From NCBI GenBank assembly GCA_035299085.1, contig DATGXG010000026.1, positions 10,568-74,567 of the forward strand: DNA of 64,000 nucleotides. Reading direction: 5' to 3'. Shown here one piece after another: positions 345-60,774 of the stretch. How positions within the stretch are numbered: the first letter of the stretch is position 1; each line of letters starts with the position of its first letter. The notes under the pieces are model-generated. The model had not been told where the DNA came from. It worked only from the letters and a program-made list of their open reading frames with translations, and made no database searches. The position numbers and the translations under genes are program-made. The DNA comes from Bacteroidales bacterium (lineage in GTDB: Bacteria > Bacteroidota > Bacteroidia > Bacteroidales > UBA10428).

Positions 345-345
345 A

Positions 346-872: not shown

Positions 873-973
873 TATGAATATTTTTGCAGGGGTTTCTATG
901 GGTATACGTGAACATTAAAATGGGTTTACAGTTATAAGGAAAAAAATTTCAAGTATTTTATAACTATTTTTAA

Positions 974-1010
974 ATGTCAAAGTACAAATAATTATATGTC
1001 AGATGACATA
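974..1010. promoter_or_regulatory. Candidate operator: three ATGTCA half-sites, two forming the inverted repeat TATGTCA-GA-TGACATA
   Basis: Seen directly. ATGTCA occurs at 974..979, and the palindrome TATGTCAGATGACATA at 995..1010. It lies in the 193-nt divergent region between cheY (starts at 872, minus) and the Crp/Fnr gene (starts at 1066, plus). Confidence 0.25.
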
Positions 1011-1065
1011 ATACTATGCAGCTTTAATTGACCTGTTTCTGTTTCTCACTGTAAATGAAGTCATC

Positions 1066-2254: not shown

Positions 2255-2299
2255 ATGCTTTCGTTTACGTCGGAATCACTTTTTTTGTTTGATTCAAAA

Positions 2300-4023: not shown

Positions 4024-4026
4024 TGT

Positions 4027-6021
4027 TTAGTCTTTAAGTTTTGTGATATGATTAAAAAGAAAATTGGTATCCAGGATGAAGGCAAGGTCGCCATCCACCA
4101 GGATACTACCGCCTGAAAAATAAGGCTGGTTAACAAACAACTCACCTAATGGCTTAATAACAGCCTGGTGTTCTCCGACGATTTCATCGGCGATAATGGC
4201 GTATCGTCTGTCAAATTTGTTGATCACAACCACCATCTGGTCCTTCGATACCGATGAAGTGTAGCGAAACTGTTCCCGCAGAGAGACAAGGGGAATCGGG
4301 TGATTTTTATATTCCAGGTAACGATTATCCCTTTTATTCAGAATCTGCTGTTTTTCCCTGTAACAGTATTCAATATCCATTACCGGAATCAGGACTTTGG
4401 TTTCAGCAATATTCACCATCAGGGTATCCACAATTGTTAGTGTTGTGGGAAGCTTCATTGTAATTGATGTTCCCAGGTCCTTTTCAGTGAAGACTTCCAG
4501 ACTGCCACCCACACCGTTTAGCTCCTTTCTTACTACATCCATTCCAACGCCCCGGCCTGAAACAATGCTTACATTCTCATTCGTGGTGAAGCCGGGTTCC
4601 ATGATCATGGTGATCAATTCATCTTTTGTAACTACCTGGTCCTGTGTAATGAATCCCTTTTTAATAGCACATTCCCTCACACGGTCAAGGTTAATCCCGC
4701 TTCCGTCGTCCTGAACCTGAATGATAACGCTGGCGCCTGAATAAAAGGCGGTGATTTTTAGCAACCCTTCCTTTTTTTTGCCCTTTGCCAGTCGCTCTTC
4801 GGAAAATTCAATCCCGTGGTCAATGCTATTCCGTATTATATGCTGTAATGGACTTTCAATTGATTTAAGAATGGTTTTATCAATCTCTATATCCTGGCCT
4901 TCGATAAGCAGTTGCACATTTTTCCCCAGATCCCTTGAGAGATCCCTTACCTGCCTTTTAAACTTATTCAACAAACTGCCAACAGGTATAAGTCGCAGAT
5001 CAAGAGCATTGTTTCTGAACTTTTTTGTCAACTTCTCGATGTTTTCAAGGGCATTGTTAAGTTTGGAATCATTATACACCATAGCTCTTGCCTGAACAGT
5101 AGCGGTTTCAGTAACCAGCTCACTAACCAGGTTCATTAATTCATCCAGTTTATGCGATGAAACATTTACAGTTGTTTCAGTATCGGTTTTTACGGTTTCA
5201 GCCTGCACCTGGTTTGATGGTTCCTGAATGGCAGCGGCAACTGCTTCCTCTTTCACAATCTCAGGTAGTTTCTGAAGGTATTGACGGATATGTGCCGTTA
5301 TATCTTTCTTGTTTTTATATAACTTTTTAATCTTCAAATAAACATGGCCTTCAGGTTCAATAGATTCAGCGGTTACCGGCAGGACGCAAAATTCATCCTG
5401 TTCGTAGAAAAGAAATATATCATTCAGCTGTTCACGTGAAACGGTACTTCTAAGGTAAACTTCCCAGGAAGTAGTACAAATTTTTTCACGGTCAGAAGTA
5501 TTCTTTAATTTCCCCTTGTCATGAATGATGCAAACAAGTTGTCCGGACTGTTTCAATTCTTCAATTGAGTTCTCGGGTTTTAAGCCCCGCTCAAACACAT
5601 TCTTATCTGGTGTAAAAAGAATGACATAAGTATCCGTTTCATTTTCCTGAGAAACGGATTCCGGAGTATCAAGTTCATTGTGCAATCGCTTAAGATCATA
5701 ATCTGCCTCACTTTTTTTACCGTCAAGCATGGCCAGCATAGTATCTTTAGCCTTAAGGGTAGTATCAATGATCCGGCTGTCTGCCTTTAATTCCCCGTCC
5801 CTGATCTTCGAATAGAGGTTTTCAAATTCATGTGTAAGTCCCTGGATATTCCTGAACCCGACCATACCGGCCGAGCCTTTCAGGGTGTGCATGATTCTGA
5901 AAATACTATTGATAATCTCCGGATTGAGCGGATTCTGTTCCAGCCTCATGAGGTCATCCTCAAGTTGCATCAGCAATTCCTTTGCTTCTGTAACAAATCC
6001 CTGTATGAATTCATCTATCAT
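4027..6021 (-). CDS. cheA: Chemotaxis histidine kinase CheA
   Basis: 664 aa. N-terminal Hpt with MHTLKGSAGMVGF, dimerisation region, HATPase (IRNSIDHGIE..., DDGSGIN, GRGVGMDVV) and a C-terminal CheW-like domain. Overlaps the upstream cheY by 4 nt. Confidence 0.9.
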   Translation of the reverse strand: MIDEFIQGFVTEAKELLMQLEDDLMRLEQNPLNPEIINSIFRIMHTLKGSAGMVGFRNIQGLTHEFENLYSKIRDGELKADSRIIDTTLKAKDTMLAMLDGKKSEADYDLKRLHNELDTPESVSQENETDTYVILFTPDKNVFERGLKPENSIEELKQSGQLVCIIHDKGKLKNTSDREKICTTSWEVYLRSTVSREQLNDIFLFYEQDEFCVLPVTAESIEPEGHVYLKIKKLYKNKKDITAHIRQYLQKLPEIVKEEAVAAAIQEPSNQVQAETVKTDTETTVNVSSHKLDELMNLVSELVTETATVQARAMVYNDSKLNNALENIEKLTKKFRNNALDLRLIPVGSLLNKFKRQVRDLSRDLGKNVQLLIEGQDIEIDKTILKSIESPLQHIIRNSIDHGIEFSEERLAKGKKKEGLLKITAFYSGASVIIQVQDDGSGINLDRVRECAIKKGFITQDQVVTKDELITMIMEPGFTTNENVSIVSGRGVGMDVVRKELNGVGGSLEVFTEKDLGTSITMKLPTTLTIVDTLMVNIAETKVLIPVMDIEYCYREKQQILNKRDNRYLEYKNHPIPLVSLREQFRYTSSVSKDQMVVVINKFDRRYAIIADEIVGEHQAVIKPLGELFVNQPYFSGGSILVDGDLAFILDTNFLFNHITKLKD

Positions 6022-6383
6022 GCCAGAACTTTTTGAACCAGTTTCTTAAATTCAGTTATCTCAAAGGGTTTCCTTATCCAGGCAGTGATTTTTGCATCTC
6101 TTGCCCTTGCTTGTTTATCGATGTTCGTTTCAGTGGAGAGTACGAAAATCGGTATATATTTGTATACTTCTGTGCTTCGGATGTATTCTACAAGCGATCC
6201 CCCATCCATGTTTGGCATGTTGTAATCTGTAATCACAAGGTCAATTGTGCTTCCGTCGAAATATCGCGTGGCATCTCTTCCGTCAGCGGCCTCATCAACC
6301 ATATGCCCCATGCCTTCCAGAGTTTTTTTTATAATCTGTCTCGAGGTATTAAAATCCTCTACTACAATGATTCTCTTTTTCAT
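6018..6383 (-). CDS. cheY: CheY-like single-domain response regulator (paralog 2)
   Basis: Receiver domain very similar to the 510..872 product (VVEDFNTSRQIIKKTLE, VITDYNMPNMDG, VLSTET, IRKPF). I place the start at MKKRIIVVED (6383) rather than the ORF-track start at 6407, which would overlap the MCP stop. Confidence 0.85.
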   Translation of the reverse strand: MKKRIIVVEDFNTSRQIIKKTLEGMGHMVDEAADGRDATRYFDGSTIDLVITDYNMPNMDGGSLVEYIRSTEVYKYIPIFVLSTETNIDKQARARDAKITAWIRKPFEITEFKKLVQKVLA

Positions 6384-6403
6384 AACGAACAGGATTTCAG
6401 AAA

Positions 6404-8455
6404 TCAAAAGTTTTCGAAATCCTTGTCTGATGAAGCCACAGTCCCCAAAGTTTTCTTTGGTTCATGATGAAGGGTTTCCCTGATTTTAGAAGAAGCAGCC
6501 TTAGTTTGAGTTGCGTGTTTTTTGAAATTGTTTTCCCCGTACTTTTTCTGGATTTTATCTTCATCACCAACTTTGAAATAGGCGACAGCTTCTTTCAATG
6601 TTTCAGCCTGAGCGGATAGTTCTTCGGCACTGGTTGCCATTTCTTCAGAAGATGCAGCATTTTGCTGGGTAACGATATTCAATTGTTGAATGGCACTGTT
6701 TATCTGGTCAGCTCCTGAATTCTGCTCAACACTTGCTGCTGTAATTTCCTGGACCAGTTGTGAAGTTTTCTGTATTTCCGGTACCAAAGCCTCGAGAGAT
6801 TCGCGTGATTTTTCGGTAATCTTCAGACTATTCCTGGACAGGCTTTCAATTTCATCAGCTGCCAGTTTGCTTCTTTCAGCCAGCTTACGCACTTCAGCAG
6901 CCACCACAGCAAATCCGCGTCCGTGTTCACCGGCTCTTGCCGCTTCAACAGCTGCATTCAAAGCAAGAAGATTTGTCTGGAATGCGATATCATTAATAAT
7001 TGTTATTTTTTCAGCAATAGTCTGAATGGTGTCAAAACTTTCCCTTCCTATTTTGCTCATTTCTATCATACTATCGGTTGCCTTTCCGGAAATGTTCTCG
7101 GTTTGCCTTGCATTATCGGTATTTTGCTGGATATTGCTGACCATTTCTTCCATCGACGAAGAGATTTCCTCTGTAGATGAAGCCTGTTCAGTGGCTCCCT
7201 GTGATAACTGCTGTGAACCATTGCTGATTTGTGAACTGGCAGCGGCAATACTGTCGGCACCTGTTCTGATATTCAGCACAATTTCCCTCAATTTATCGAG
7301 CATTTGTGTAAGAGAATCTGCCAGATCTCCTATTTCATCATGCTGATCAACTATTAATGTAGCTGTAAGGTCGCCGCGTGAAATTTTCTTTGCAAATTCA
7401 ACACCCTGTTTAAGTGCACGGGTTATAGAACGGCTTAATGCAACAGTAATGATAATAAATATTCCTATTCCGATAAGTACTGCAACAAGAATGGCATATG
7501 TGGTTCTTCTTACAATTTTCAGAAATTCATCCTGGAAGATACTAGCGGCAACATATGATTCAATTTCAGGTAGATATTTATAATATTGTTTTTTAACTCT
7601 GCCTTCCCAAGAGTATTTTCCTGATCCATAGCCGCTCTTGTCATTTTGAAGCTGCTTGAAGAATTCGCTGTCTTTTTCGTTTGAACCTTCCTTGGTTGGA
7701 TGGATTATTAGGTTACCGGTATTGTCAACCAAAAAAGGATATCCTGAATCGAAATACTTTTTTGAACTAAAGTATTCTTTCAGAGAACTCATATCTTTCT
7801 CCGGTGTTCCTGTTGCCACTACCAGTTGTGTCCCGTCATTGAGTGTAAAACCTTTATAAGCTGTTAAATACCACTCGTCTAATACAACGGCACGGTCAAC
7901 AAATTCTTCGCCTTTGTCAAGCGCTAAAGCAACAGGTGAATCATTAGGAATCAAAGTATTAATTGCCCGGTTGCCATCCTTTTGGATAACAGATGTTGAG
8001 ATCCTGACATATCCGGCGTTTGTTTTTTGAAGAATGGTACAGACAACACCGGTTAGTTTAGAAACTTCATCCACATAAGTAGTACTATTATATAAACTAT
8101 TGCCATTAATTGTTACTTTTTTAATCTGAAGTTGCTGAACTTCTTTTGTAGACTGGTTTTTAGCTTGTATATCAAAAGATTGTCCGGTTGAAACCACATG
8201 GTTGTTTGTAAAAATCAGGTCAATTCCTACATCAGTGGCGCGCCTGGTTGTGTTTTGACCCTGTTTGATCTGTTCTTTAATAATTGAAGCCAGATCATTC
8301 ACCTGTTCAAACATTCGGGTATCTGTGTCATTAACAAGCTGCCTTCTTTGTGAGGTTATAGTATAAACCCCCAGCAACGAAATGATGACCACAAAAGCAA
8401 GGTTGAAAACAAGGTTCAACCTTGCACCAATCTTTAAATCATTTAATTTTTTCAT
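6404..8455 (-). CDS. Methyl-accepting chemotaxis protein with a large periplasmic Cache-like sensor
   Basis: 683 aa. TM1 ([18 protein letters not shown]), a roughly 280-aa extracytoplasmic domain with Cache-like motifs ([26 protein letters not shown]), TM2, HAMP ([13 protein letters not shown]), and an MCP signalling hairpin ([40 protein letters not shown]). Confidence 0.9.
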
Positions 8456-17523: not shown

Positions 17524-19803
17524 ATGAAACACAACTACATCTTCGCCTTACTTATCTCAACCCTGTTTAACCTAATTTTTGAATACAACTGTTATTCACA
17601 AACCAAACTTCATGTAGATGCAGAATATATAAAGGATGTTGTTTCGGATATTGCTTCCGACGATTACCAGGGTCGTGAAACCGGTACTGCCGGATGTGTT
17701 ATGGCCGAAGATTATTTTGCTGCCGAACTGCAGAAACTGGGCCTGAAACCAGCCGGTGATTCAGGTTCCTGGTTTTTTAATTATTCAATTCCAAAAGAGG
17801 AGTTTGACCTGACAGCAGGACTTACGATCGACAACAGGTCATTCTTCCAGGGATATAATGAGGATTTTTCAGTAGTTTATAAAAGTGAGCCCGGTGATGT
17901 CCAGGGTGATATTGTTTTCGCCGGTTATGGTATTTATAACCCGGAAAAAAACAGGAATGATTTTGATACGCTTGACCTTAAAAATAAAATAGTTTTAATG
18001 AAGCGAGGTGCCCCGCGTAATGACATACAGTCTTGGATGCCTTCCTGTATCGATTCGGTAAAGGCAGCATACTGTTACGAACACGGTGCTGTGGGAGTGT
18101 TATTTTATGAACCGCTTATTCGCACAAATCAGCGCATTCTGAAACCAACTTTTGGAAATCACCTGGCTATGGTAAGGGTAATTCCCTGTTTCCCTGTGTT
18201 TTCAATTGATGAGCGGGTTGTGCGGTTTATTTTTTCGCAAATGGGACAGTCGTATTACCGCATTAACAACTTGATTGAAACCCAGCCCGAATCCTTTGCA
18301 ACGAAAAGCACCTGTCATATGTCGGCTAGCGGTAAAAAGAACCAGTCGATTCATACCCGCGATGTACTGGGAATGATAAAGGGAACGGACAGGACTCTGA
18401 AAGATGAATTTATCGTTATAGGAGGGCATATTGACCATCTTGGCGCAGACGAACACGGAAAATTATGGAACGGAGCTGATGATAATGCCTCCGGACCTGC
18501 AGTTGCCCTTGGAATTGCCAGGGCTATGATCATGAACAAGTACAAACCCAGGCGGAGTATAATTTTCGCCGCATGGACCGGAGAGGAGATGGGGCTTCTG
18601 GGTTCAAAGGCATGGTGTGACCGCCCAACTGTTGATGCATCAAAGATTGTTGTATATTTCAATCTGGATATGGTAGCCGTAGGAAATGGAAAACTAAATA
18701 TGCCCGGCACTGCTTACGGTCCCGAACTGGCTGATTTCATTAAGGAAAATTTGGACACAGCCCTTCTCAGGAACATCATTTGGAGTGACGGAGGTATTTC
18801 GGGAAGCGATCACAGTAACTTTTTAAATCTTGGAATACCAGCATTTGCAGGGATGACAGCTGGTTCACATCCCGATTATCACCAGCCTGGCGATGATCCT
18901 GAAAAAATAAGTAAACCTGTGCTTCAGTTCACTGGCGATTTTATTGCTGCCTGTGTTACCGCAATTGCGGACAGCCGTTCCGACTTTAACCGCCTGGCAC
19001 GACAGGAGGAAAACCAGATGAGACTTATGTCATTTTCATTCTATCAGCCAATCAGTTTATCATCATGCAATGAAAAATTAAGTGAAACTAATTTCAGACA
19101 GGGACTTGTGAATTTCTCCAAATCACAGCCTTCCGCAGATCAGAATGCAAACTTCATCGGTTTATTAGCGGATCTTGACAGTGCGCTGCAAAAAAATAAC
19201 AACAAGTATGTATTTTCCACAAGTGCCTACGATGCGATGATGACCCGTGAAGGATTGCTTGCGGCTTTCAATCCCGCCGATGTCGGCATGGATGATCTGA
19301 AATTAAAAGTACTTGCAAGCCAGGGATACCGCATTGCCATAGTCGACAGCAAAAATGTAATTTGTACTGATACGGCCAGGATGAGACACTTTTTGACTAT
19401 TTGCCATCAAAACGGCCTGGGTGTAATTCTGAATAACTTACCTGTGCCCTGCCTGGAAGCCATCACATCCGAATCCGTTGATCCGGTGTTGATAATGAAT
19501 TCCGAATTTCTCAGCGACCGGATATTCAGTAATATCAAAGCCAAAGGCCACCTCATCATATTTGCATTGAAAAACAATGATATCATAAACCAGGAAAACA
19601 GAAATTTGGCCAGACTGATTGAACTGGCCGGCGACGATCATATTCTGATTTGTCCTTCGGATCTTGCTCCTGAAGATTTGCGGTACCTCAAAATGTTTGT
19701 CAGGCAGTACTCAAAGTCCGCTAAGGACAAGTCGCTGCAATATAAATTATTGAATGATAATTTCCGTGATTTTGCGGTAAAGTCGATGCAGCCGAATCTT
19801 TAG
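17524..19803 (+). CDS. Secreted M28-family aminopeptidase with a PA domain and a roughly 270-aa C-terminal extension of unknown function
   Basis: 759 aa. Signal peptide. M28 metal-ligand contexts GGHIDHLG, DDNASG, TGEEMGLLGS, NLDMVA and GSDHSNF. Residues from about 490 to the end have no motif I recognise. Confidence 0.8.
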   Translation: MKHNYIFALLISTLFNLIFEYNCYSQTKLHVDAEYIKDVVSDIASDDYQGRETGTAGCVMAEDYFAAELQKLGLKPAGDSGSWFFNYSIPKEEFDLTAGLTIDNRSFFQGYNEDFSVVYKSEPGDVQGDIVFAGYGIYNPEKNRNDFDTLDLKNKIVLMKRGAPRNDIQSWMPSCIDSVKAAYCYEHGAVGVLFYEPLIRTNQRILKPTFGNHLAMVRVIPCFPVFSIDERVVRFIFSQMGQSYYRINNLIETQPESFATKSTCHMSASGKKNQSIHTRDVLGMIKGTDRTLKDEFIVIGGHIDHLGADEHGKLWNGADDNASGPAVALGIARAMIMNKYKPRRSIIFAAWTGEEMGLLGSKAWCDRPTVDASKIVVYFNLDMVAVGNGKLNMPGTAYGPELADFIKENLDTALLRNIIWSDGGISGSDHSNFLNLGIPAFAGMTAGSHPDYHQPGDDPEKISKPVLQFTGDFIAACVTAIADSRSDFNRLARQEENQMRLMSFSFYQPISLSSCNEKLSETNFRQGLVNFSKSQPSADQNANFIGLLADLDSALQKNNNKYVFSTSAYDAMMTREGLLAAFNPADVGMDDLKLKVLASQGYRIAIVDSKNVICTDTARMRHFLTICHQNGLGVILNNLPVPCLEAITSESVDPVLIMNSEFLSDRIFSNIKAKGHLIIFALKNNDIINQENRNLARLIELAGDDHILICPSDLAPEDLRYLKMFVRQYSKSAKDKSLQYKLLNDNFRDFAVKSMQPNL

Positions 19804-19804
19804 G

Positions 19805-19930
19805 ATGAAATCGTTTGAATGAATCGTTTGAATGAAATCGTTTGAGTAACTTCTTTCAAACTCTTTTTCAAACTCTTTTTCAAACTTCTTTCAAACCTTT
19901 TCTTTAAACAGCGAAGCGTTCAAACTTCTT
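19805..19930. repeat. Composite tandem-repeat element A: 3 x ATGA(A)ATCGTTTGA followed by 4 x T(C)TTT(T)TCAAAC, plus degenerate tail copies
   Basis: Seen directly. Left array 19805..19845, right array 19851..19896. Tail copies are CTTTAAAC at 19902..19909 and GTTCAAAC at 19918..19925. The GTTTGAA core of the left units is the reverse complement of the TTCAAAC core of the right units. The element fills the gap between convergent genes. Confidence 0.85.
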
Positions 19931-25985: not shown

Positions 25986-26114
25986 AAGCGCAAGAATCCA
26001 AACTATGATCGCATCGCGATGGCTATCGAATATAATAGTCATCATTTCAAAGAGCAAGCCGATCTCGACCAGGTGGCATCCATTGTAAACCTGAGTGAAC
26101 CTTTAAACCTTTAA
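25986..26114 (+). pseudogene. Remnant of an AraC-family HTH domain (first helix-turn-helix only), truncated by repeat element B
   Basis: The frame starting at 25986 reads KRKNPNYDRIAMAIEYNSHHFKEQADLDQVASIVNLSEPLNL*. This matches the AraC-family pattern (hydrophobic-x-x-Y-I-x-x-H-F-x-x-x-I/L-x-L-x-x-L/V-A-x-x-x-x-L/M-S). There is no upstream start or N-terminal domain, and the frame dies inside the CTTTAAAC repeats. Confidence 0.35.
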
Positions 26115-26145
26115 ACCTTTAAACATTGGAACCTTTAAACCCTTG
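26097..26145. repeat. Repeat element B: GAAC-CTTTAAAC x3 in tandem plus one spaced copy
   Basis: Seen directly. CTTTAAAC at 26101..26108, 26109..26116, 26117..26124 and 26133..26140, with GAAC preceding at 26097 and 26129. Confidence 0.8.
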
Positions 26146-28029: not shown

Positions 28030-28030
28030 T

Positions 28031-28098
28031 AGCCCCGGCCTTAAGGCCGGGGACTATAAATCCGGGTCATCCATTGCCCCCGGCCTTAAGGCCGGGGC
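28031..28098. repeat. Twin perfect 20-nt palindromes CCCCGGCCTTAAGGCCGGGG (probable bidirectional terminator hairpins)
   Basis: Seen directly at 28033..28052 and 28078..28097, separated by 25 nt. They lie between the convergent ClC and DUF4389-like genes. Each can form a 10-bp GC-rich stem if the hairpin loop forms within the central TTAA. Confidence 0.8.
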
Positions 28099-28105
28099 TA
28101 TTGAA

Positions 28106-39208: not shown

Positions 39209-39331
39209 GTGACTAGTGACTGGTGACTGGTGACTGGTGACTGGTGAAGGCCGGGGCTATAGGTATCCGGTATCCAGTATTCAGTATCCAGTATCCAGTA
39301 TCCGGCATCCGGCATCCGGTATCTTTTTTTT
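39209..39331. repeat. Composite tandem-repeat element D: about 5.5 x GTGACTG, spacer AGGCCGGGGCTATAG, about 8.7 x GTATCCR, then T8
   Basis: Seen directly. Heptamer array 1 at 39209..39247, spacer 39248..39262, heptamer array 2 at 39263..39323, T-run 39324..39331. ACTGG in array 1 is complementary to CCAGT in array 2. This gives 5-bp helices separated by 2x2 mismatches. Confidence 0.85.
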
Positions 39332-40470: not shown

Positions 40471-40658
40471 AAATGGTTCCAAATAGTTCCAAATAGTTCC
40501 AAATGGTTCCAAAGTGGTTTAAACGTGGTTCCAAATGGTTCCAAATGGCTCCAAAGTGGTTTAAACGTGGTTCCAAATGGTTCCAACAAGGTAACCTTGA
40601 AACAACCTTGAAACAACCTTGAAACAACCTTGAAACAACTTTGAAACAACTTTGAAAC
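40471..40658. repeat. Composite tandem-repeat element E: decamer array AAATGGTTCC (with a 42-nt higher-order duplication) followed by 6 x AAC(C/T)TTGAAAC
   Basis: Seen directly. Decamer-based array 40471..40584, containing two 42-nt super-units at 40501..40542 and 40543..40584. 11-mer array 40593..40658. Together they fill the whole convergent gap between the AI-2E gene and the cyclase gene. Confidence 0.85.
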
Positions 40659-40664
40659 AAATTT

Positions 40665-44803: not shown

Positions 44804-44897
44804 AGTTTCATGTTGTTTCATATGTTTCAAATTGTTTCAAATTGTTCTGAAACTACTTTGAAACTAAATGAAACCATATGAAACAACTTTGAAACAT
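44804..44897. repeat. Composite tandem-repeat element F: 5 x GTTTCA-containing units, then 5 x TGAAAC-containing units, forming a long imperfect hairpin
   Basis: Seen directly. GTTGTTTCATATG (44812..44824) pairs perfectly with CATATGAAACAAC (44875..44887). Inner GTTTCA/TGAAAC blocks also pair. The element lies between convergent efp and fabI. Confidence 0.85.
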
Positions 44898-52179: not shown

Positions 52180-52791
52180 TTACTTTTCGTTTTGGGCGGC
52201 GTGCCGCGATTTAATGCCAAGATAACCTCCATGATGCCTTTTGGCATAATCGGCTGCTGTAAACCCGATCTTCTTCATCATGAGTACTACCAGTGCGTCG
52301 CCAATGACGGTCATCACAGTGGTTGAAGTGGTGGGTGTGAGGCCGAGAGGACAAACTTCGGCGGGGTGACCGGTGGATATGGTTACGTCGGCAAGATGTC
52401 CGAGTTCACTGTCGGCATTACCTGTGATGACAATAGTATGCATGTTGTAACCCAGCCTTTTCGCCAATTCATATAATTCAAGAATTTCAAGAGTTTTTCC
52501 TGAATTCGATACAAGCAAAAGGATATCATTCGGCTGAATTACGCCAAGGTCACCGTGTTGTGCATCGGCAGGGTGCAGAAAAATGGCCGGGGTTCCGGTA
52601 GCTGATAAGGTAGTGGCGATGTTAAGGGCAATCTGACCGGCTTTTCCCATACCGCTGGCCACTACTTTTCCACCCTTACCATGAACACTTTCAAAGATAA
52701 GATCACAGGCCTTTTCAAAATTTTCGGTGGCTGGGATATTAAGAACGGCTTTTGCCTCTGCTTCAAGAATCTTCTTTACTTCGCTGCTCAT
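52180..52791 (-). CDS. SIS-domain sugar-phosphate isomerase, KpsF/KdsD-like but lacking CBS domains (probable arabinose-5-phosphate isomerase)
   Basis: 203 aa from MSSEVKKILEAEA. GKVVASGMGKAGQIA, LLLVSNSGKT and C-terminal HHGGYLG (the HPGGxLG-like motif that follows the SIS domain in KpsF/KdsD). No CBS pair follows. Confidence 0.7.
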   Translation of the reverse strand: MSSEVKKILEAEAKAVLNIPATENFEKACDLIFESVHGKGGKVVASGMGKAGQIALNIATTLSATGTPAIFLHPADAQHGDLGVIQPNDILLLVSNSGKTLEILELYELAKRLGYNMHTIVITGNADSELGHLADVTISTGHPAEVCPLGLTPTTSTTVMTVIGDALVVLMMKKIGFTAADYAKRHHGGYLGIKSRHAAQNEK

Positions 52792-52809
52792 TGTAGAAAT
52801 TTGAAGGGA

Positions 52810-52817
52810 CAAATATA
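52810..52817 (-). promoter_or_regulatory. Candidate -7 box (TATATTTG on the minus strand) upstream of the SIS gene
   Basis: Exact TAnnTTTG match 19 nt upstream of the ATG at 52791. It overlaps the TTG start used by the ORF track. Confidence 0.3.
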
Positions 52818-52827
52818 GTAAAAGCGC

Positions 52828-53080
52828 ACGTCATTGCGAGTAAGAACACCTTTTTAAAGATCACCCGGTGAAATGACAACATATTTACACAGAGGTTCAC
52901 AGAGGCACCACAGAGGTTCACAGAGAAAAAATCTGTTTTCTCAGTGGTTCTCTGTGTCTTCTCAGTGGTTCTCTGTGTAATAATGGTGAGGAAAAACAAA
53001 TCGTCATTAGTAGGAGCATGACTGAAATATGGATTTAGTATTGCTTCGCCTCCGCAAGAACCCGTGGCTCGCAATGACGT
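52828..53080. repeat. Inverted-repeat-bounded element G (253 nt): termini ACGTCATTGCGAG / CTCGCAATGACGT enclosing CACAGAG / CTCTGTG arrays
   Basis: Seen directly. 13-nt perfect terminal inverted repeats at 52828..52840 and 53068..53080. Inside, 4 x CACAGAG (52888..52924) face 2 x CTCAGTGGTTCTCTGTG (52940..52977). ATTGCTTCGCC at 53040..53050 resembles a motif in element H. Confidence 0.75.
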
Positions 53081-53085
53081 TCCCA

Positions 53086-55092
53086 TTATGTTATGGTTCT
53101 GTGCAAATGATAATCCATCTTTTTCAGCAGAAGTTCTTTATGGATGGGTTTTGAAACATAATCATCACAACCCGCGGCGAGGCATTTGGCCTTATCTTCA
53201 GACATTGCGTAGGCTGTCTGTGCAATTATGGGCACTGTAATTTTTTGCTCGCGGATCTTTTTAGTTGCGTCAAGGCCGCTCATTATCGGAAGCCGGATAT
53301 CCATAATGATAATTCCCGGTTTATTATTTATCGCCTTTTCAACTGCTTCTTCTCCATTTATGGCACGGTCAATTTCCATACCTGTTGCTGAAAGAACTTC
53401 CTGCAGGAATGCATAGTTCATATCGTCATCTTCAACAACAAGTACAGTTTTACCTTCAAATTGCATAATATCTTCTTTATTTATAAAGTTATCTTTTTCC
53501 TTAACCTTGTTCCTGATATGTTTCCGAGGAATTGAGAAATTAAACCTGGATCCCTTGCCCGGTTCACTTTCAACCCGGATTGTGCCTCCCATCAGTTTCA
53601 GAAGTCCCCTGCAAATCGACAGGCCAAGGCCCGTTCCTCCATAAATCCTGGATCCGGATTGCTGAATCTGCCGGAAAGGTTTAAAAATCGTTTCAATCTG
53701 TGATTCCGGAATTCCGATGCCGGAATCCTCCACAAAAAATTCAATCATTCCATTCTTGTCCCCGGCATGGAAACCAAAACGGATATGACCTTCCTCAGTA
53801 AATTTCAGGGCATTGTTCAGCAGGTTCATTAAAATCTGTCGCAACCGGTTTTCATCGGTAGTTATAACGGTGTCGAAGAACTGCGGATTGTAATCTTTAT
53901 AAAGAAGGACCGAATTTTTCCCCATCCTTTCACATTCTTTCAGGTACATAATGTAAAGGTCTTCAATTACCCGGGCAATCCGGCAATCTCTTTCGTTCAG
54001 AAGCATCTGGCCCGCCTCAATTTTTGAAATGTCTACAAGGTCATCAATTATATGAAGAAGCTGGTCATTGCATTTATTAATGACTTCAACGTAACTGTTA
54101 AAAGTAGGGTTTTCAGGCACTTCTCGAGTAAGTAGTTCTGAGAAACCGATAATTCCGTTCATGGGAGTTCGAATCTCATGGGATAAATTGGCGAGAAAAG
54201 CCGATTTCAGTCTGTCACTCTCCTGGGCCTTTTCTTTGGCAGATCTCAGTTCGGATTCAATTTCTTTCTGAAATGTTATATCGCTGGCAATCCCCACAAC
54301 ACGACGGATTTCACCGGATGAAACCGGAACCGGGAAAAGCCGCACCCAAAGCCAATGCACAGTTCCCTTGACATCGGTGACACGTATTTGCCTGCTGACG
54401 GGATCAGAAGAACGGTAATCGGCTTTAATAAGATCATAATAAATATGAAGGTCATCCGTGTGGATGATATTGGCTACCTCCTCAATGTGGTTATAAAACC
54501 TGCCAATATCATATCCGAATTTATCTTCAAGGGCATTATTGATATACAAAAGTTTCCGGCCTTCAGTGAGCCAGAAAATGTCATCAATGTTTTCTGCCAG
54601 TTGCCTGAACCTTAATTCGCTTTCCCTGAGTTGGGCTCTTGCCCTTATGATTTCATCAATATCCCGGGTAACAGACAATATATAATCTTCACCATTTAAA
54701 GACAGGATGGAGGCTGACATTAAAGCTGTTTTTATGGTACCATTTTTCAGCATAAAACGGGCTTCGAGGTTAAAAACCTTCCCGTTTTCCTGAAGGGCTT
54801 TTACCAGTTTTTTCCGATCCTCCTGATCATACCAGATATTAATGTCTTTGGAAGTTTTGCCTTCAACATCCTTCCAGGTGTATCCCGTGATGTGCGTAAA
54901 CCCTTCGTTGATATCAATAAACAGCCCGTCAGAGAGGCGGTTGATATTTATTGAATCGGGGCTGATTTTAAATGCAACCCTGAATTTTTCCTCACTCTCC
55001 CGCAAAAGCTCATATGTTTTCTGAAGCTTTAAGTCCTGTTTATGCAGCAACTGATTAAGATCCTGCACAGATATTTCTTCTTGTTTAGGCAT
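53086..55092 (-). CDS. Hybrid sensor histidine kinase (PAS-PAS-HisKA-HATPase-REC), cytoplasmic
   Basis: 668 aa. Two PAS-like regions, H-box [21 protein letters not shown], HATPase ([25 protein letters not shown]), and a C-terminal receiver ([26 protein letters not shown]). Confidence 0.9.
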
Positions 55093-55220
55093 GTAAGGCT
55101 TAGGTAATATTTCGCGAAAAAGAAGCGGTTTAATGCAATAAATTTAACATATTAGGTAAATAAATAAACAAAATTTAACTTTTTTCATTTTCCGTCACCA
55201 AAAGATGAAATTAATTCAAA

Positions 55221-55333
55221 TGGGGTACAAAACTCAAAAACGATAAAAACTATAATTTATACCCCAATAAAAAAGGGGTGATAATTTAAATTATATAATA
55301 AATAATAAAATATATCCTCAAAATATTGGGGTA
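55221..55333. promoter_or_regulatory. Three copies of TGGGGTA (two direct, one inverted) in the AT-rich leader of the porin-glnB-amtB operon
   Basis: Seen directly. TGGGGTA at 55221..55227 and 55327..55333, and TACCCCA at 55260..55266. TATACCCCAATA (55258..55269) is the exact reverse complement of TATTGGGGTATA (55325..55336). Confidence 0.3.
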
Positions 55334-55348
55334 TATTAAATATTTAAT

Positions 55349-55356
55349 TATTTTTG
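55349..55356 (+). promoter_or_regulatory. Candidate -7 box TATTTTTG upstream of the porin-glnB-amtB operon
   Basis: Exact TAnnTTTG match 28 nt before the ATG at 55384. Confidence 0.3.
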
Positions 55357-55383
55357 TCCCAAGAAAAACCAAAAACAACAGTC

Positions 55384-56061
55384 ATGAAAAAAGTACTACA
55401 AACTTCAGGTCTCGTTTCCCTAGTTCTAATTGTCTTTGCTATGAATGTGCAGGGACAGGAAACGGAAAGCAAAGCCGCTTTTGATGTGAAAATGGATATC
55501 TACAGTAATTATATCTGGAGAGGGTCAAAATTGGGAACCGGACCATCTCTTCAGCCAAGCGTAACTTTTACTGCCGGTGGCCTCACTCTGGGCGTTTGGG
55601 GTGCTTTTGATGCAAGTGGATATACAGAGGCAGATCCTTATATTTCCTATGCATTTCCTTTTGGTTTAAGTCTGGGTGTAACGGATTATTATTATCCCTC
55701 ATTAAAATTATCTGATTTTTCTGATTCTACTGGAAGTCATGCAATAGAGTTGAATGCCGGATTTACCACAGGTGGTTTATCACTTAGTGCCAATTACATT
55801 GTAAATGAAGCCGGAGGTGCGGCTTCGAAGGGCCAGGATATGTATTTCCAGGCAGGATATGCGTTTAAAAACTTTTCAGTCAGTGTGGGTGCCGGAGACG
55901 GTTGGCATACTACAAATGGGGATTTCAACGTATGCCATATCGGTATCGGCACTTCAAAAGAAATTAAAATCACCGATACCTTCAGTATACCGGTAAGCGG
56001 GCAGGTCATTGTGAATCCTGAGAAAGAAGCACTATATGTTGTCGTAGGGCTGTCACTTTGA
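55384..56061 (+). CDS. Small outer-membrane beta-barrel (TorF-like putative porin) preceding glnB-amtB
   Basis: 225 aa from MKKVLQTSGLVSLVLIVFAMNVQGQ (signal peptide). SNYIWRGSKLG...PSLQPSVTF and alternating beta-strands. The family name is from memory of similar genes upstream of amt operons. Confidence 0.5.
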   Translation: MKKVLQTSGLVSLVLIVFAMNVQGQETESKAAFDVKMDIYSNYIWRGSKLGTGPSLQPSVTFTAGGLTLGVWGAFDASGYTEADPYISYAFPFGLSLGVTDYYYPSLKLSDFSDSTGSHAIELNAGFTTGGLSLSANYIVNEAGGAASKGQDMYFQAGYAFKNFSVSVGAGDGWHTTNGDFNVCHIGIGTSKEIKITDTFSIPVSGQVIVNPEKEALYVVVGLSL

Positions 56062-56085
56062 TAAATCATCAAAACACCAATATAT

Positions 56086-56451
56086 ATGAAAAAAATCGAG
56101 GCAATAATCAGAACATCTAAGTTCGAAGAAGTTAAAACCGAACTTAAAAAAATCGGTATTGATTTCTTTTCGTACTGGGATGCTTCCGGTGTGGGTAATG
56201 AGCTGACCCGTGGTCACCATACCTACCGCGGAACGGTTTATGATACACAGTATATTCCCAGGATTTTTATATCCTTAGTCCTTCGTGATGTGAATGTTCA
56301 GAAAACGATCGATTGCATCCAGAAAGCTGCATTTACGGGTGAAGTTGGTGACGGCATGATTTTCAGTTACAATATTGAGGAATCTGTCAGAATCAGCAAC
56401 GGTGCCAGGGGTGAAGCATCCACTGCAGGACCGGGAGACTCATTACTTTAA
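56086..56451 (+). CDS. P-II family nitrogen regulatory protein (divergent)
   Basis: 121 aa. MKKIEAIIRTSKFEEVK, a T-loop-like TYRGTVY, and B-loop TGEVGDGMIF. Immediately upstream of amtB. Confidence 0.8.
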   Translation: MKKIEAIIRTSKFEEVKTELKKIGIDFFSYWDASGVGNELTRGHHTYRGTVYDTQYIPRIFISLVLRDVNVQKTIDCIQKAAFTGEVGDGMIFSYNIEESVRISNGARGEASTAGPGDSLL

Positions 56452-56475
56452 ATTCATAACGAAAAAATCATAGCC

Positions 56476-58023
56476 ATGAAAAAGAATTTGCTATTTCTAA
56501 TTATAGCGCTGGTACTGACATTAGGAGTTTCGGTGTTTACCAGCGCGCAGGAGCCTGTACCTGATCCTTCAGGCGTATCAACGGGAACCGCAAATGATGT
56601 ACCTGCAGCTACAGCAGGTAGTCCGACACTTGAAGAAGTGGCCGCTCAGGCCGGTCATAATAAGGTTGCCATCAATATGATGTGGGTCCTGATCACCGGT
56701 TTCCTTGTTATGTTTATGCAGGCAGGTTTTGCCATGGTTGAGGCTGGCCTTACCCGTGCAAAAAATGCTGCACATACGATGGCCATGAACTTCCTGATTT
56801 ATCCGTTAGGTATGATTGGATTCTTCCTAACCGGTTTTGCATTCATGTTCGGAGGGGTTGGAAGTCTTGGTACCCTTGGAGGGTTTGGAGGACTGAGTCA
56901 TGAGATTTCGATCCACCTGTTTGGAAAAACTTTTGATATAATCGGTTTTAAGGGTTTCGGGCTCGCCGGGGTATATGATGTGAGCGTGTTTGCCCTGTTC
57001 CTTTTCCAGATGGTGTTTATGGATACCACGGCCACAATACCTACCGGATCAATGGCTGAACGCTGGAAATACCTAGCATTTTTCATATACGGCATATTCG
57101 TTGGTTCTGTTATTTACCCGATATATGGAAACTGGGTATGGGGAGGTGGCTGGTTAGCCGACCTCGGTACAAATTTTGGACTCGGGCACGGACATGTTGA
57201 TTTTGCCGGCTCATCGGTTGTTCATATGACGGGTGGTGTGCTGGCCGTTGTGGGAGCAGCAATGATCGGGCCGCGTCTTGGAAAGTACAATAAAGACGGA
57301 TCAGCTAACGCTATCCCGGGTCATAACATCCCTATGGCTATTATCGGAACCTTTATCCTCGCATTCGGATGGTTCGGATTTAACCCGGGTTCAACGCTTG
57401 CAGGCGGCGATCTTAGAATTTCAGTTGTTGCCGTCAATACAATGATCGCCTCAGCAACAGGCGCAATTGCCTCTACTTTATACATGTGGATTTTCAAAAC
57501 CAAAAAGCCCGATCCCACCATGATGCTTAACGGTATGCTTGCCGGACTTGTGGCAATTACAGCACCATGCGGATTTGTTTCGGTAGGCAGTGCCGCACTA
57601 ATAGGGGTAATTTCAGGTGTGCTTGTTATTGAAGCCGCCTTCTTTATTGAAAGAAAACTTAAAATTGATGACCCTGTCGGTGCAATCGCCGTTCATGGTA
57701 TTAACGGTGCCTGGGGATGCCTTGCACTCGGTTTGTTTGCCGACGGAACATATGGTGATGGCTGGAATGGTGTTGCCGGCAAGGTTACCGGACTCTTTTA
57801 TGGTGACGGAGGTCAGTTTGTGGCTCAGCTGATCGGAGTAGCTACCAATATTATCTATGTAGGTGCAATTGGATGGGTAATGTTTAAACTTATTGATTTA
57901 ACAGTTGGCTTAAGGGTCGATCCCAAGATTGAGCTTGAAGGAGTTGATCTCGAAGAAATGGGTGTTGAAGGTTATTCGGGGGTTAAAATGGATAAAAATG
58001 TAGAAACACCACTTTCACGTTAG
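56476..58023 (+). CDS. amtB: Ammonium transporter (Amt family)
   Basis: 515 aa. Signal or TM N-terminus, QAGFAMVEAG, FAGSSVVHMTGG, and 11 or more TM helices. Confidence 0.92.
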   Translation: MKKNLLFLIIALVLTLGVSVFTSAQEPVPDPSGVSTGTANDVPAATAGSPTLEEVAAQAGHNKVAINMMWVLITGFLVMFMQAGFAMVEAGLTRAKNAAHTMAMNFLIYPLGMIGFFLTGFAFMFGGVGSLGTLGGFGGLSHEISIHLFGKTFDIIGFKGFGLAGVYDVSVFALFLFQMVFMDTTATIPTGSMAERWKYLAFFIYGIFVGSVIYPIYGNWVWGGGWLADLGTNFGLGHGHVDFAGSSVVHMTGGVLAVVGAAMIGPRLGKYNKDGSANAIPGHNIPMAIIGTFILAFGWFGFNPGSTLAGGDLRISVVAVNTMIASATGAIASTLYMWIFKTKKPDPTMMLNGMLAGLVAITAPCGFVSVGSAALIGVISGVLVIEAAFFIERKLKIDDPVGAIAVHGINGAWGCLALGLFADGTYGDGWNGVAGKVTGLFYGDGGQFVAQLIGVATNIIYVGAIGWVMFKLIDLTVGLRVDPKIELEGVDLEEMGVEGYSGVKMDKNVETPLSR

Positions 58024-58046
58024 GCCATATAAATAATCCTTTCATG

Positions 58047-58083
58047 AAAAATCCCCGGGAGATGGCCGGGGATTTTCTTTTTT
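58047..58083. terminator. Bidirectional rho-independent terminator
   Basis: AAAATCCCCGG-GAGATGG-CCGGGGATTTT. An 11-bp stem followed by CTTTTTTT, and preceded by an A-run that serves the opposite strand. Lies between convergent amtB and trpB2. Confidence 0.8.
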
Positions 58084-58101
58084 AACCGTGTAGGTAAAGC
58101 A

Positions 58102-59475
58102 TCAGGAAGGTTTCGGATAATTTTCCAGTTCCTTCAGGTTTCCGAATAATTCTGTATCCGACATTTCATGCTTCACCAGTTTACCTGTAAGGTATTTATC
58201 ATAACCAACAAGGTCCATTAAACCGTGACCGCTGAGATTGAACACAATTACCTTTTCTTTGCCTTCTTCTTTTGCTTTTTTAGCTTCCCTTATTGCACCT
58301 GCAATGGCATGAGTGGTTTCAGGTGCCGGAATTATGCCTTCGCTCCTTGTAAACAGGATACCGGCCTCATAACACTCAACCTGGTCAATGGCTACCGGGT
58401 TAATGAGCTTATCGTTCAGGGCTGCCGAAACAAGGGGACTCATACCATGGTAACGGAGTCCGCCCGCATGGATAGGCTCAGGGATGAAGTTATGTCCCAG
58501 CGTATACATAGGCAGCAACGGAGTCATTTTGGCTGTATCGCCGAAATCATAAAGGAAAGGCCCGCGGGTGAGGGTAGGGCATGAACTGGGCTCTACCGGG
58601 ATGATTTCAATCTGATCACCATGAAGCTTATCATAAATAAACGGAAATGATATACCTGCAAAATTACTTCCGCCGCCGGCACAGGCAATTACCACATCAG
58701 GTTTCTTTTCACCGAATTTGACAAGTTGTTTTTTCACTTCAAGACCAATGATAGTCTGGTGAAGCATTACATGATTCAATACGCTTCCCAGGCTATAGCG
58801 GGTCTGGCCGGTAGGATCCGTTACAGCAGCTTCAACGGCTTCACTTATTGCAATGCCAAGACTGCCGGGCGTGTCAGGATACTTCGCGAGAATATCGCGT
58901 CCTGCCTGGGTTTCCAGGCTGGGACTGGCAATGCAGGTTGCCCCGTAGGCATTCATAAGCAGTTTGCGGAAAGGTTTTTGGTCGAAACTGATGCGAACCA
59001 TGAAAACCTTGCATTCGAGACCTATTAAAGCACAGGCCTGCGAAAGGGCACTTCCCCATTGACCCGCGCCGGTTTCAGTTGTGAGCTTTTTAATTCCGAA
59101 TTGTTTGTTGTACCATGCCTGGGCAATGGCTGTGTTCAGTTTGTGACTTCCGGCAGGTGAAACGCTTTCGTTTTTATAATAGATCCTTGCCGGTGTTTTC
59201 AAAGCTGCTTCAAGCTCATATGCCCTGACAAGCGGTGTAGGCCTGTATAAAGCCAGCATATTGAGCACTTCTTCCGGGATATCAATCCACCGCTGCGTAC
59301 TTACTTCCTGCTCAATAAGATTCATAGGAAATACCGGCGCCAGCATATCGGGTGAAACCGGTTTTCCGTCAGGTCCCAGTGGCGGAAGCATTGGAGTGGG
59401 AAGATCGGGAGCCAGGTTATACCATTGAGTGGGCATTTCGGATGCCTCAAGGAATACTTTCTTAATTCGTGCCAT
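58102..59475 (-). CDS. TrpB2-type tryptophan synthase beta-like PLP enzyme (stand-alone)
   Basis: 457 aa (long TrpB2 form). PLP-lysine context [14 protein letters not shown], and GGGSNFAG. Confidence 0.85.
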
Positions 59476-59594
59476 GAGTTACTTGTTTATCGTTTAGAGT
59501 TTGACGTTGACGTCTGACTAAAATTTGAAAGGCACTAAATTAATGGTTTATCCCTAATTTACATAAAATTGCAGCGAAAGTTTATAAAGATTCT

Positions 59595-59812
59595 ACGTCA
59601 TTGCGAGGAGCTTGAATCACAATGATTATAGTACCAATTAATCGCGACGAAGCAATTTGCCCGCACTGGCAGAACTCTGCAAAAAGAAACAGGTGTAAAA
59701 TGTTACTTTGGAATCTGTGCTCTTTGAAGCGCCCTTCCTGTTCTGGTAGATTGCTTCGTCGACTTTTAATACTGCTATAATCAATTATAAATCAAGCTCC
59801 TCGCAATGACGT
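59595..59812. repeat. Inverted-repeat-bounded element H (218 nt): 21-nt perfect termini ACGTCATTGCGAGGAGCTTGA / TCAAGCTCCTCGCAATGACGT with nested internal inverted repeats
   Basis: Seen directly. Termini at 59595..59615 and 59792..59812. Nested pairs are TGATTATAG (left) and CTATAATCA (right), and CGACGAAGCAAT (59645..59656) with ATTGCTTCGTCG (59750..59761). It shares its first and last 13 nt with element G. Confidence 0.8.
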
Positions 59813-59817
59813 TTCCC

Positions 59818-60774
59818 TTAAATCGCCAAATGACTCAAATACCTTTCCGCCTCAATGGCTGCCTGGCAACCAGAACCTGCAGCGGTAACGGCCTGGCGAT
59901 ACACCTTGTCCTGTACATCCCCGCAGGCAAACACTCCTGGCACATATGTTTTTGGTGTACCCGGTATGGTTTTGATATAACCGGTTTCATCGGTTTCAAT
60001 ATACTGCTTGAATACTTCAGAATTGGGAGTATGACCAATGGCAAGGAAAAACCCGTCAATTTTTATTACTTCTTCCATTTCATCCACCTCTCCCTGGCGT
60101 TTTATGAGGACAACTTCCTGTACTACATCAGTGCCCCGTATTTCCTTTGTATTCCTTTCAAAAAGAACTTCAATATTCGGTGCGTTTTCAACCCGCATCT
60201 GCATGATTTTCGATGCTCTCAGAAAATTCTTCCTGACAATCAGATATACTTTCTTACACAAACCCGCCAGGTAAAGGGCTTCTTCGCATGCTGTATCACC
60301 TCCGCCTACGACGGCAACGTCCTTGCCCCTGTAGAAAAAACCGTCGCACGTGGCACATGCTGAAACACCCGATCCTTTATATTTATCCTCCGATTCAAGT
60401 CCCAGGTATTTTGCTGTGGCTCCCGTTGCAATGATTACCGTATCGGCTTCGAGCATGGTTTTATCATCAACGACAACTTTGTGCGGCGTTTTTGAAAAAT
60501 CAACAGCTGTCACAATGCCCCACCGGATGTCTGTACCAAAACGGGCGGCCTGTTCATCAAGGTCATCCATGAGTTTTGGACCTGTAATCCCTTTCGGATA
60601 TCCCGGAAAGTTTTCCACATCGGTTGTTGTTGTTAACTGTCCGCCCGGCTCAAGTCCCTTGTAAAGTACAGGATGCAAATTGGCCCGTGCTGCATAAATG
60701 GCAGCCGTGTAACCTGCCGGCCCCGATCCGACAATCAGGCATTTTACATGTTCAGAAGGTGTCAGGTTATTCAT
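59818..60774 (-). CDS. trxB: Thioredoxin-disulfide reductase
   Basis: 318 aa from MNNLTPSEHVKCLIVGSGPAGYTAAIYAARA. Redox-active CATCDG. The ORF-track N-terminal extension (to 60912) has no homology-like features. Confidence 0.9.
   Translation of the reverse strand: MNNLTPSEHVKCLIVGSGPAGYTAAIYAARANLHPVLYKGLEPGGQLTTTTDVENFPGYPKGITGPKLMDDLDEQAARFGTDIRWGIVTAVDFSKTPHKVVVDDKTMLEADTVIIATGATAKYLGLESEDKYKGSGVSACATCDGFFYRGKDVAVVGGGDTACEEALYLAGLCKKVYLIVRKNFLRASKIMQMRVENAPNIEVLFERNTKEIRGTDVVQEVVLIKRQGEVDEMEEVIKIDGFFLAIGHTPNSEVFKQYIETDETGYIKTIPGTPKTYVPGVFACGDVQDKVYRQAVTAAGSGCQAAIEAERYLSHLAI

Follow-up and report, generated by a model that had tools for sequence, protein, structure and literature searches.

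A CGTC-tagged dimeric repeat downstream of trxB in a Bacteroidales genome, probably an insertion of the REP type

The 64,000-nt stretch of DNA analyzed here (the window) comes from contig DATGXG010000026.1 of a Bacteroidales bacterium and carries, between two genes of the same direction, a palindromic element that we call H. The gene on one side is trxB, the next gene downstream encodes a TrpB-like pyridoxal phosphate (PLP)-dependent enzyme, and a second element of similar ends, G, lies elsewhere in the window, likewise between same-direction genes. Our data indicate that H is probably a noncoding, nonautonomous repeat of the repetitive extragenic palindrome (REP) type, composed of two inverted palindromic units, each with a CGTC tag, the tags lying on the outside. 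The locus is laid out as follows.

59595-59812, no strand: element H, 218 nt, two CGTC-tagged REP-type units joined by a spacer into a dimer with the tags outside ("HH") (inverted repeats, folds, and fuzzy-pattern unit search)
59596-59656, plus strand: unit 1 of H, on the side of the TrpB-like gene, reading CGTC, ATTGC-GAG, GAGC, a 33-nt AT-rich loop, CGAC, GAA-GCAAT (fuzzy pattern)
59750-59811, minus strand: unit 2 of H, on the trxB side, with an identical core and a 34-nt AT-rich loop (fuzzy pattern)
59657-59749, no strand: spacer of H, 93 nt, both ends forming a weak CTRCC/GGCAR pairing
59595-59615, plus strand: left perfect 21-nt terminal inverted repeat of H, ACGTCATTGCGAGGAGCTTGA
59792-59812, minus strand: right perfect 21-nt terminal inverted repeat of H, the exact reverse complement of ACGTCATTGCGAGGAGCTTGA
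59818-60774, minus strand: trxB, thioredoxin-disulfide reductase (TIGR01292, 385 bits versus a cutoff of 343; open reading frame [ORF] table)
58102-59475, minus strand: TrpB-like PLP-dependent enzyme, the next gene downstream of H (NF009057, 709 bits)

A preliminary description of this DNA had presented H as a nested palindrome of 218 nt with perfect 21-nt termini and paired inner blocks around a center of about 90 nt, and the sequence bears this out. The block TGATTATAG (59623-59631) is complementary to CTATAATCA (59775-59783), and CGACGAAGCAAT (59645-59656) is complementary to ATTGCTTCGTCG (59750-59761), with a center of 93 nt. An inverted-repeat search recovered the outer 29 nt at 90% complementarity and the inner 64 nt at 70%. 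Both arms follow a single formula, CGTC-ATTGC-GAG-GAGC-[33 or 34 AT-rich bases]-CGAC-GAA-GCAAT-C, in which the cores CGTCATTGCGAG and GAAGCAAT are exact and GAGC and CGAC border the insert; the three bases 3' of the cores are CTA and TTG, not CCA.

The capacity of H to fold as a long stem-loop or a cruciform, also claimed in that description, was confirmed as well. As RNA, H folds at -97.3 kcal/mol on the minus strand (z score, -11.1) and at -98.1 kcal/mol on the plus strand (z score, -12.1), a stability reached by 0 of 200 shuffles, and as DNA its z score is -9.1. Whichever strand is folded, the result is a single long hairpin. The isolated arms do not fold on themselves (z scores, -1.6 and +0.7; a short unit from the relative L002, introduced below, gave -2.9), and the AT-rich stretch of 33 to 34 nt in each arm finds its complement in the opposite arm alone. 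In most organisms, this variable insert of the unit is instead a small hairpin.

Close relatives of the TrpB-like protein are numerous and carry annotations as Bacteroidales metagenome-assembled genomes (MAGs). One of them, L002, has a TrpB-like protein 97% identical to that of the window, and both its H site and its G site are occupied. The arms of its H orthologue are ~93 to 95% identical to those of H, while the spacer is largely different, with indels; its termini read TCGTC...GACGA, its junction with the stop codon reads TAG-AGGCA-TCGTC, and its fold reaches -101 kcal/mol. At the G site of L002, a short unit and a long-loop unit form a dimer of 181 nt. By contrast, four relatives (L006, L369, L370, and L373) share the gene order at 89 to 91% identity but have no unit in the region between trxB and the trpB-like gene, which measures 139 to 213 nt; in L369 and L370, the G site is unoccupied as well. 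The upstream block of the trpB-like gene, TTTATAAACTTT..TGCAATTTTATG..TTAATTTAG at ~59530-59594, lies outside H; it is kept in relatives with and without H, among the latter in L006, L369, and L370, and is more diverged in L373. By fuzzy search, the window has three units and L002 has four, and the 20-kb loci of six other relatives have none; the shuffle mean is 0.06.

Between H and its L002 orthologue, substitutions in the arms break five pairs, and by inspection compensation is confined to the outermost pair, which changes from A-T to T-A. Because these substitutions break pairs and are mostly uncompensated, the long helix of H is not under visible selection. The presence of H in the 97% relative, its absence from the four relatives at 89 to 91%, and the uncompensated substitutions therefore lead us to conclude that H is an insertion and not a conserved RNA element of trxB. 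On these sequence comparisons, the simplest reading is that the ancestor shared by the window organism and L002 acquired both H and G. In relatives, the intergenic spot of H also shows short tandem arrays: ATCCAGY is repeated five times in L002, AAGATTA-type repeats flank the upstream region of the trpB-like gene on both sides in L370, and GATTTAC repeats are found in L373.

The preliminary description had left open a site-specific insertion and had described, for both elements, the pattern of a stop codon followed by GGGAA(A)CGTC. Insertion is supported in a lineage-specific form by the empty sites of the relatives, whereas the site-specific motif was not upheld. The five bases between stop codon and tag are GGGAA or TGGGA at H, at G (53081-53085), and at the G site of L002 (L002 16393-16397), but AGGCA at the H site of L002. 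Among 238 dimers of other organisms, a GGGAA-like motif before the tag was not seen, nor was there a strong preference beyond a pyrimidine, so the pattern does not extend to the family. Its recurrence at three of the four occupied sites could be a coincidence, a local target, or the result of copying between both sites.

To place H among known repeats, a species-representative genome collection was searched with the pattern CGTCATTGCGAG-N(10-40)-GAAGCAAT (as a census pattern, the unit is written YCGTCATTGCGAG...GAAGCAAT). This gave at least 120 matches in genome contigs from at least 10 phyla, compared with ~34 expected by chance according to our rough estimate; viral contigs also gave at least 120 matches, and the long-loop version gave at least 120 in metagenomes. 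The statistics on units, tags, and dimers given below rest on loci among the matches listed. Among these, the proteobacterial ones come from Bradyrhizobium, many other Alphaproteobacteria, Rickettsia/Tisiphia, and Gammaproteobacteria, and those from Bacteroidota come from Pedobacter, Sphingobacterium, Tannerella, Rikenella, and other Bacteroidales. Further phyla represented are Ignavibacteriota, Chloroflexota, Patescibacteria, Planctomycetota, Myxococcota, Armatimonadota, Zixibacteria, Thermodesulfobacteriota, and Bacillota. Unannotated copies were also found on plasmids of Methylocystis, Methylosinus, Novosphingobium, Legionella, Halomonas, and cyanobacteria.

That the genome matches are real family members follows from further features that lie outside the search pattern and are common to them. 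A pyrimidine precedes CGTC in 231 of 283 units from other organisms, and CCA follows GAAGCAAT in 159 of the 283 (the CTG type of the L002 arms does so in 13). The insert begins with GAGC in 119/283 units and ends with CGAC in 177/283, which are the very borders seen in H. The inner stem covaries, with 32 two-sided changes versus 9.8 in shuffles (0 of 500 shuffles reach 32), and the tandem G.A/A.G positions are swapped for Watson-Crick pairs in other copies. The first two pairs of the foot are A-T and T-A in all 63 aligned units, an invariance that the search pattern itself imposes.

Pairs of units are mostly arranged as in H. When neighbors within 450 nt were considered for 813 tags, the 345 pairs comprised 243 with tags outside, 18 with tags inside, and 84 in tandem. 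Apart from one of 414 nt, the tags-outside dimers span 61 to 219 nt, with clusters at ~80 to 90, 115 to 125, and 150 nt, which puts H, at 218 nt, at the long end of the range. A comparable dimer with an AT-rich loop, 219 nt long, occurs in L145 and is the only one of its kind among the listed long-loop metagenome matches; the others are mostly unrelated GC-rich loop modules from soil. In viral contigs, no match to long-loop arms of the H type was found. Inspection of the flanks revealed no target-site duplication at H or at G, and in 238 distinct tags-outside dimers the direct repeats abutting the element followed the distribution obtained with shuffled partners.

The soil-metagenome units with long inserts (L129 to L248; e.g., L135 5359-5425) have conserved GC-rich modules of their own, 36 to 40 nt long and each recurrent on many contigs, such as CAACGGGTCGCGCGAATGCGCGCCCGATGACAGGCTCCG, GACTTGTCCGCCGTAGCTCAACGAGCGAAGGCGGAAG, and TCGCGACAAAATTGCAAAGCAATTTTGCGCTGAAG. 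The unit scaffold thus seems to accept modular, structured inserts. Units also occur in other spacings: viral contig L322 has three same-strand units in tandem at 3095-3441, spaced by 156 to 159 nt, and viral contig L269 has three same-strand units at 232-6861 that are 3.2 to 3.4 kb apart.

Element G is a composite of the same family as H, and its recognizable components are the following.

52828-53080, no strand: element G, a composite of the family of H (fuzzy pattern and sequence reading)
53040-53079, minus strand: intact short unit in G, CGTCATTGCGAG-CCACGGGTTCTTGCGGAGGC-GAAGCAAT
52828-52840: second CGTC terminus of G

The remainder of G consists of a degenerate long-loop arm and an inverted array of 10-nt repeats. 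A 17-nt terminus occurs four times in the window, versus 0.03 times expected, and these occurrences are both ends of H and both ends of G. The assignment of H and G to one family, made in the preliminary description, stands, with the correction that the interiors are unrelated: G and H have in common only the 13-nt ends and the GAAGCAAT block. A short-read contig, L001 (Logan SRR5823602, 6,656 nt), encodes a TrpB-like protein of 457 amino acids identical to that of the window; it ends 31 nt into H on one side and within the 10-nt repeat array of G on the other. A repeat would fit its break inside H, and so would strain variation; since the arms of H share only 21 nt, the break is not evidence of copy number.

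The layout of H matches a class of repeats that has already been catalogued. Di Nocera, De Gregorio, and Rocco (2013, BMC Genomics 14:522; PMC3733652) define a super-family of CGTC-tagged REPs as palindromes with an unpaired CGTC (or TGTC/CCTC) tag at one end, complementary A-T residues at the first two stem positions, and a short unpaired tail that is mostly CCA. They report that HH dimers, with tags outside, predominate and TT dimers are rare, that the spacers measure 20 to 100 bp and vary in sequence and length, that the repeats lie between same-direction or convergent genes near the 3' end of the upstream ORF, and that they occur in five phyla, including Bacteroidetes. No dedicated transposase was found there for CGTC repeats, and associations with transposase genes were no more than chance. 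PMC3733652 is cited in a more recent survey of HuH enzymes, which links no subclass to CGTC repeats.

On each of these points, there is a counterpart in our data. The arms of H and the units of G open with CGTC directly before an ATTGC foot; this ATTGC...GCAAT foot starts with A-T and T-A pairs; the tail of the family is mostly CCA, though the H arms have tails that differ; tags-outside dimers are dominant, and H itself is one; H and G are intergenic and near the 3' end of the upstream ORF; and the unit is present in Bacteroidales and many phyla, with no transposase gene nearby. Furthermore, loci that carry the present unit also contain classic CGTC REPs such as CGTCATTCCCGCGAAAGCGGGAATCCA and CGTCATGGCCGGGCTTGTCCCGGCCATCCA, which have the frame CGTC-AT...AT-CCA in common with it. 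Palindromes of the classic perfect-stem CGTC type were not above chance in the window and its relatives. A perfect-stem palindrome in L061, a termite-gut Bacteroidales MAG, reads CGTCATTGCGGGCTTGACCCGCAATCCC, and its first part, CGTCATTGCG, is as in the ATTGC-type unit; it looks intermediate between this unit and classic CGTC REPs. By comparison with PMC3733652, then, H is an HH dimer with a layout equivalent to that of a REPIN (a REP doublet forming a hairpin), and the suggestion of a new repeat family has to be given up, as the class is catalogued there as CGTC-tagged REPs and reported in Bacteroidetes. What is particular to H within this already reported class is its long AT-rich loops, its size of 218 nt, and its datable gain.

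Several points weigh against this assignment. In families CGTC-1 to CGTC-4 of PMC3733652, the repeats have perfect stems of 8 to 9 bp and loops of 4 to 5 nt (CGTC-1 of Bradyrhizobium has atypical loops and might include the ATTGC-type unit), whereas the present unit combines a 5-bp foot (ATTGC/GCAAT) with a purine-rich GAG/GAA internal loop and a hairpin of variable length, and the loops of H, at 33 to 34 nt, are AT rich and do not fold on themselves. The peptides listed there for these families (VIPAKAGI, VIAGLDPAI, VIPWLDHGI, RHSELVSGS, and others) do not match the unit either; they imply stems of the types ATTCCCGC, ATGGCCGGG, and ATACCGTGG and not the ATTGCGAG of the unit. The fit thus holds for the super-family and fails for the four catalogued families, from which the unit is set apart by stem and loop description and by peptides, not by consensus sequences. 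In addition, the window contains two loci (three full units and one terminus) in 64 kb, which by itself does not show a high copy number genome-wide; the relatives with empty sites are too diverged for exact insertion boundaries to be read; and a candidate for a mobilizing enzyme was not found, so that a single-strand hairpin mechanism is drawn from analogy only.

REPINs are the nearest analogs of H in architecture. Bertels and Rainey are said to have described them in 2011 as two inverted GTAG REP units plus a spacer that form one long hairpin, thought to be the mobile entity. REPINs are intergenic, lack target-site duplications, and are mobilized in trans, and their cognate gene, encoding the REP-associated tyrosine transposase (RAYT), is flanked by the same REPs. 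Like them, H consists of two inverted units and a spacer, forms one long hairpin, is intergenic, and lacks a target-site duplication; unlike them, it has a CGTC tag in place of GTAG, and no RAYT-type gene was found in the window or in 2.95 Mb of unit-bearing loci. Rickettsia palindromic elements (RPEs), which are often inserted in frame within genes, offer a second comparison. The present unit occurs in Rickettsia and Tisiphia genomes, as do RPE-4 and RPE-6 in Rickettsia; H, on the other hand, is intergenic. PMC3733652 equates RPE-4, RPE-6, and the Neisseria repeat dRS3 with CGTC-4 and CGTC-1 units; their stems are of the ATACCGTGG and ATTCCCGC types, unlike that of the present unit.

By analogy with REPINs, the dimer may be inserted as a unit by a trans-acting enzyme that works on a single-stranded DNA hairpin, and cleavage would take place at or beside the CGTC tag, much as RAYT acts on GTAG REPs. 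A regular-expression search for ORFs with HuH/Y1 transposase motifs returned none, either in the window or across the 2.95 Mb of unit-bearing loci, and no protein family was enriched within 600 or 1,500 nt of units. Near units, the search recovered only ORFs that read spuriously through the repeat (RHCEERSDEAIQ, DCFVASLLAMT, and the like), genes of ordinary metabolism, and genes for phage structural proteins. No parent insertion sequence with H-type termini was seen in the unit loci examined, the collections not having been scanned for termini 0.7 to 2.5 kb apart. Literature searches with DNA and peptide strings of the repeat returned unrelated primers only.

Three other explanations for H have to be considered. 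H could be a classical miniature inverted-repeat transposable element (MITE), that is, a deleted insertion sequence whose terminal inverted repeats are recognized by a DDE transposase encoded elsewhere and which moves by cut-and-paste; its parent would be a full-length element with ACGTCATTGCGAG ends that encodes the DDE transposase. Bacterial MITEs such as Correia/NEMIS, Nezha, and Chunjie are 100 to 400 nt long, have terminal inverted repeats, form long hairpins, and often lie at gene ends, all of which is true of H with its perfect 21-nt termini, its 218 nt, and its intergenic site, and the presence or absence of H among relatives would fit as well. MITEs, however, also come with a related insertion sequence and with duplications of the target site (often TA), and for the family of H we found neither: duplications are lacking at H, at G, and in the 238 dimers. 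Moreover, a MITE needs two ends, whereas the 12-nt combination of tag and foot also occurs in single unpaired units of many phyla, and 84 unit pairs are in tandem. Near units, no transposase is enriched in 2.95 Mb, in keeping with the chance associations reported in PMC3733652. We regard a MITE origin as quite unlikely. Even further from our data is the idea that H is a one-off local palindrome, created by template switching in replication or by inverted duplication, with its likeness to G a coincidence. Long palindromes can form in this way, and the arms of H are homologous over their full length; yet the arm cores are identical to those of a family with hundreds of sampled copies, and the same unit types recur at G and at both L002 loci, making this origin extremely improbable.

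The third explanation, that H is primarily a functional RNA, concerns the proposal of a 3' untranslated region (UTR) structure for trxB in the preliminary description. H would then be a conserved 3'-UTR stabilizer, a terminator, or a small RNA serving trxB or the TrpB-like gene. The fold of H is very stable, its L002 orthologue folds too, the hairpin begins 5 nt past a stop codon, and REPs have been reported (PMC3733652 and PMC12306157) to be transcribed in many cases and to affect mRNA stability and translation. Nevertheless, the same site lacks H in four syntenic relatives, the spacer is poorly conserved, and the covariance expected of a conserved trxB RNA did not emerge, since five pairs are broken against one compensated. 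Both strands fold equally well, and G-U pairs in 173 distinct inserts do not favor either strand (tagged strand, 26; other strand, 39). Single units between same-direction genes have no orientation bias, with 10 on the gene strand and 8 on the opposite one. Rfam gave no match on G or H, either with gathering scores across the window or at an E value of ≤10 for 52700-60000, and none with gathering scores for units in 18 further loci. What follows the hairpin of H on the minus strand is not a T run but AGAATCTTTATAAAC, and a scan found no terminator-like site on that strand at H; as no U run follows the hairpin, H is, judging from its sequence, not a classical intrinsic terminator. These observations speak against the proposed UTR function, and a primary role of H as RNA appears unlikely. 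A REP-type insertion thus accounts best for H as we see it at this locus and its relatives.

This leaves the question of why one unit is so widespread. We tentatively raise the possibility, itself rather improbable, that the ATTGC-type CGTC unit is a single, near-invariant hairpin scaffold common to at least 10 phyla, plasmids, and viral contigs, that it takes modular loop inserts, and that H represents a lineage-specific expansion. If this were true, such breadth would imply a widely transferred mobilizing enzyme that is still undiscovered or a universally conserved host factor. It would also point beyond RAYT, because REPs that coevolve with a lineage-specific RAYT are not expected to hold one sequence across phyla.

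With respect to the neighboring genes, the position of H is characteristic. The TAA stop codon of trxB occupies 59818-59820, the gap to H amounts to 5 nt (59813-59817; GGGAA on the minus strand), and the CGTC tag of unit 2 starts 6 nt past the stop. G likewise ends 5 nt past a stop codon, that of a hybrid histidine kinase gene at 53086. That both elements end just past minus-strand stop codons, as had been pointed out in the preliminary description, is thus correct, and such positions are typical of REPs according to PMC3733652. In a small sample of lower-GC loci, same-direction genes flank 18 units, convergent genes 4, and divergent genes 2.

Since the helix starts 5 nt past the stop, H, if transcribed, probably affects the trxB mRNA. 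We expect the hairpin to be cotranscribed with trxB, in which case, by analogy with other REPs, it would probably protect the 3' end of the message. It may also slow translation termination: in E. coli, a distance of less than 16 nt between REP and stop codon reduces translation, a finding of Liang et al. (2015) cited in PMC12306157. Any such effects on trxB would be by-products of the insertion and not the reason why H exists. The TATAAT in CTATAATCA had suggested a sigma-70 promoter within H, but the scan found none; in any case, promoters of Bacteroidota differ from the sigma-70 type.

For the annotation of the window, H and G are to be recorded as REP-type repeats and not as genes, riboswitches, or a new transposon; they explain the breaks of short-read assemblies at this locus. 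To our knowledge, no transposase or function has become known for CGTC-tagged repeats since the 2013 catalogue. Our analysis widens the known range of one CGTC unit type by many phyla as well as by plasmids and viral contigs, shows that this unit occurs without target-site duplications, and documents, for one Bacteroidales lineage, a dated gain whose orthologous sites are clearly either occupied or empty. The H locus may therefore be a starting point for finding the mobilizing activity and for determining the effect of the hairpin on trxB expression.

The window contains repeats of other kinds as well. Many intergenic tandem arrays of short period (7 to 13 nt) are present, namely at 19794-19909, 26098-26141, 39209-39323, 40471-40660, 44805-44884, and 52888-52978, and they are often adjacent in inverted pairs, for example, 11 copies of AAATGGTTCC beside 6 of AACCTTGAAAC and 5.6 copies of GTGACTG beside 8.9 of GGTATCC. 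A direct repeat of 300 nt with 71% identity (506-805 and 6014-6313, 5.5 kb apart) probably reflects paralogous genes. At 28030-28100, a GC-rich palindrome, CCCCGGCCTTAAGGCCGGGG, is present in two copies 43 nt apart and constitutes a small hairpin repeat of another kind.

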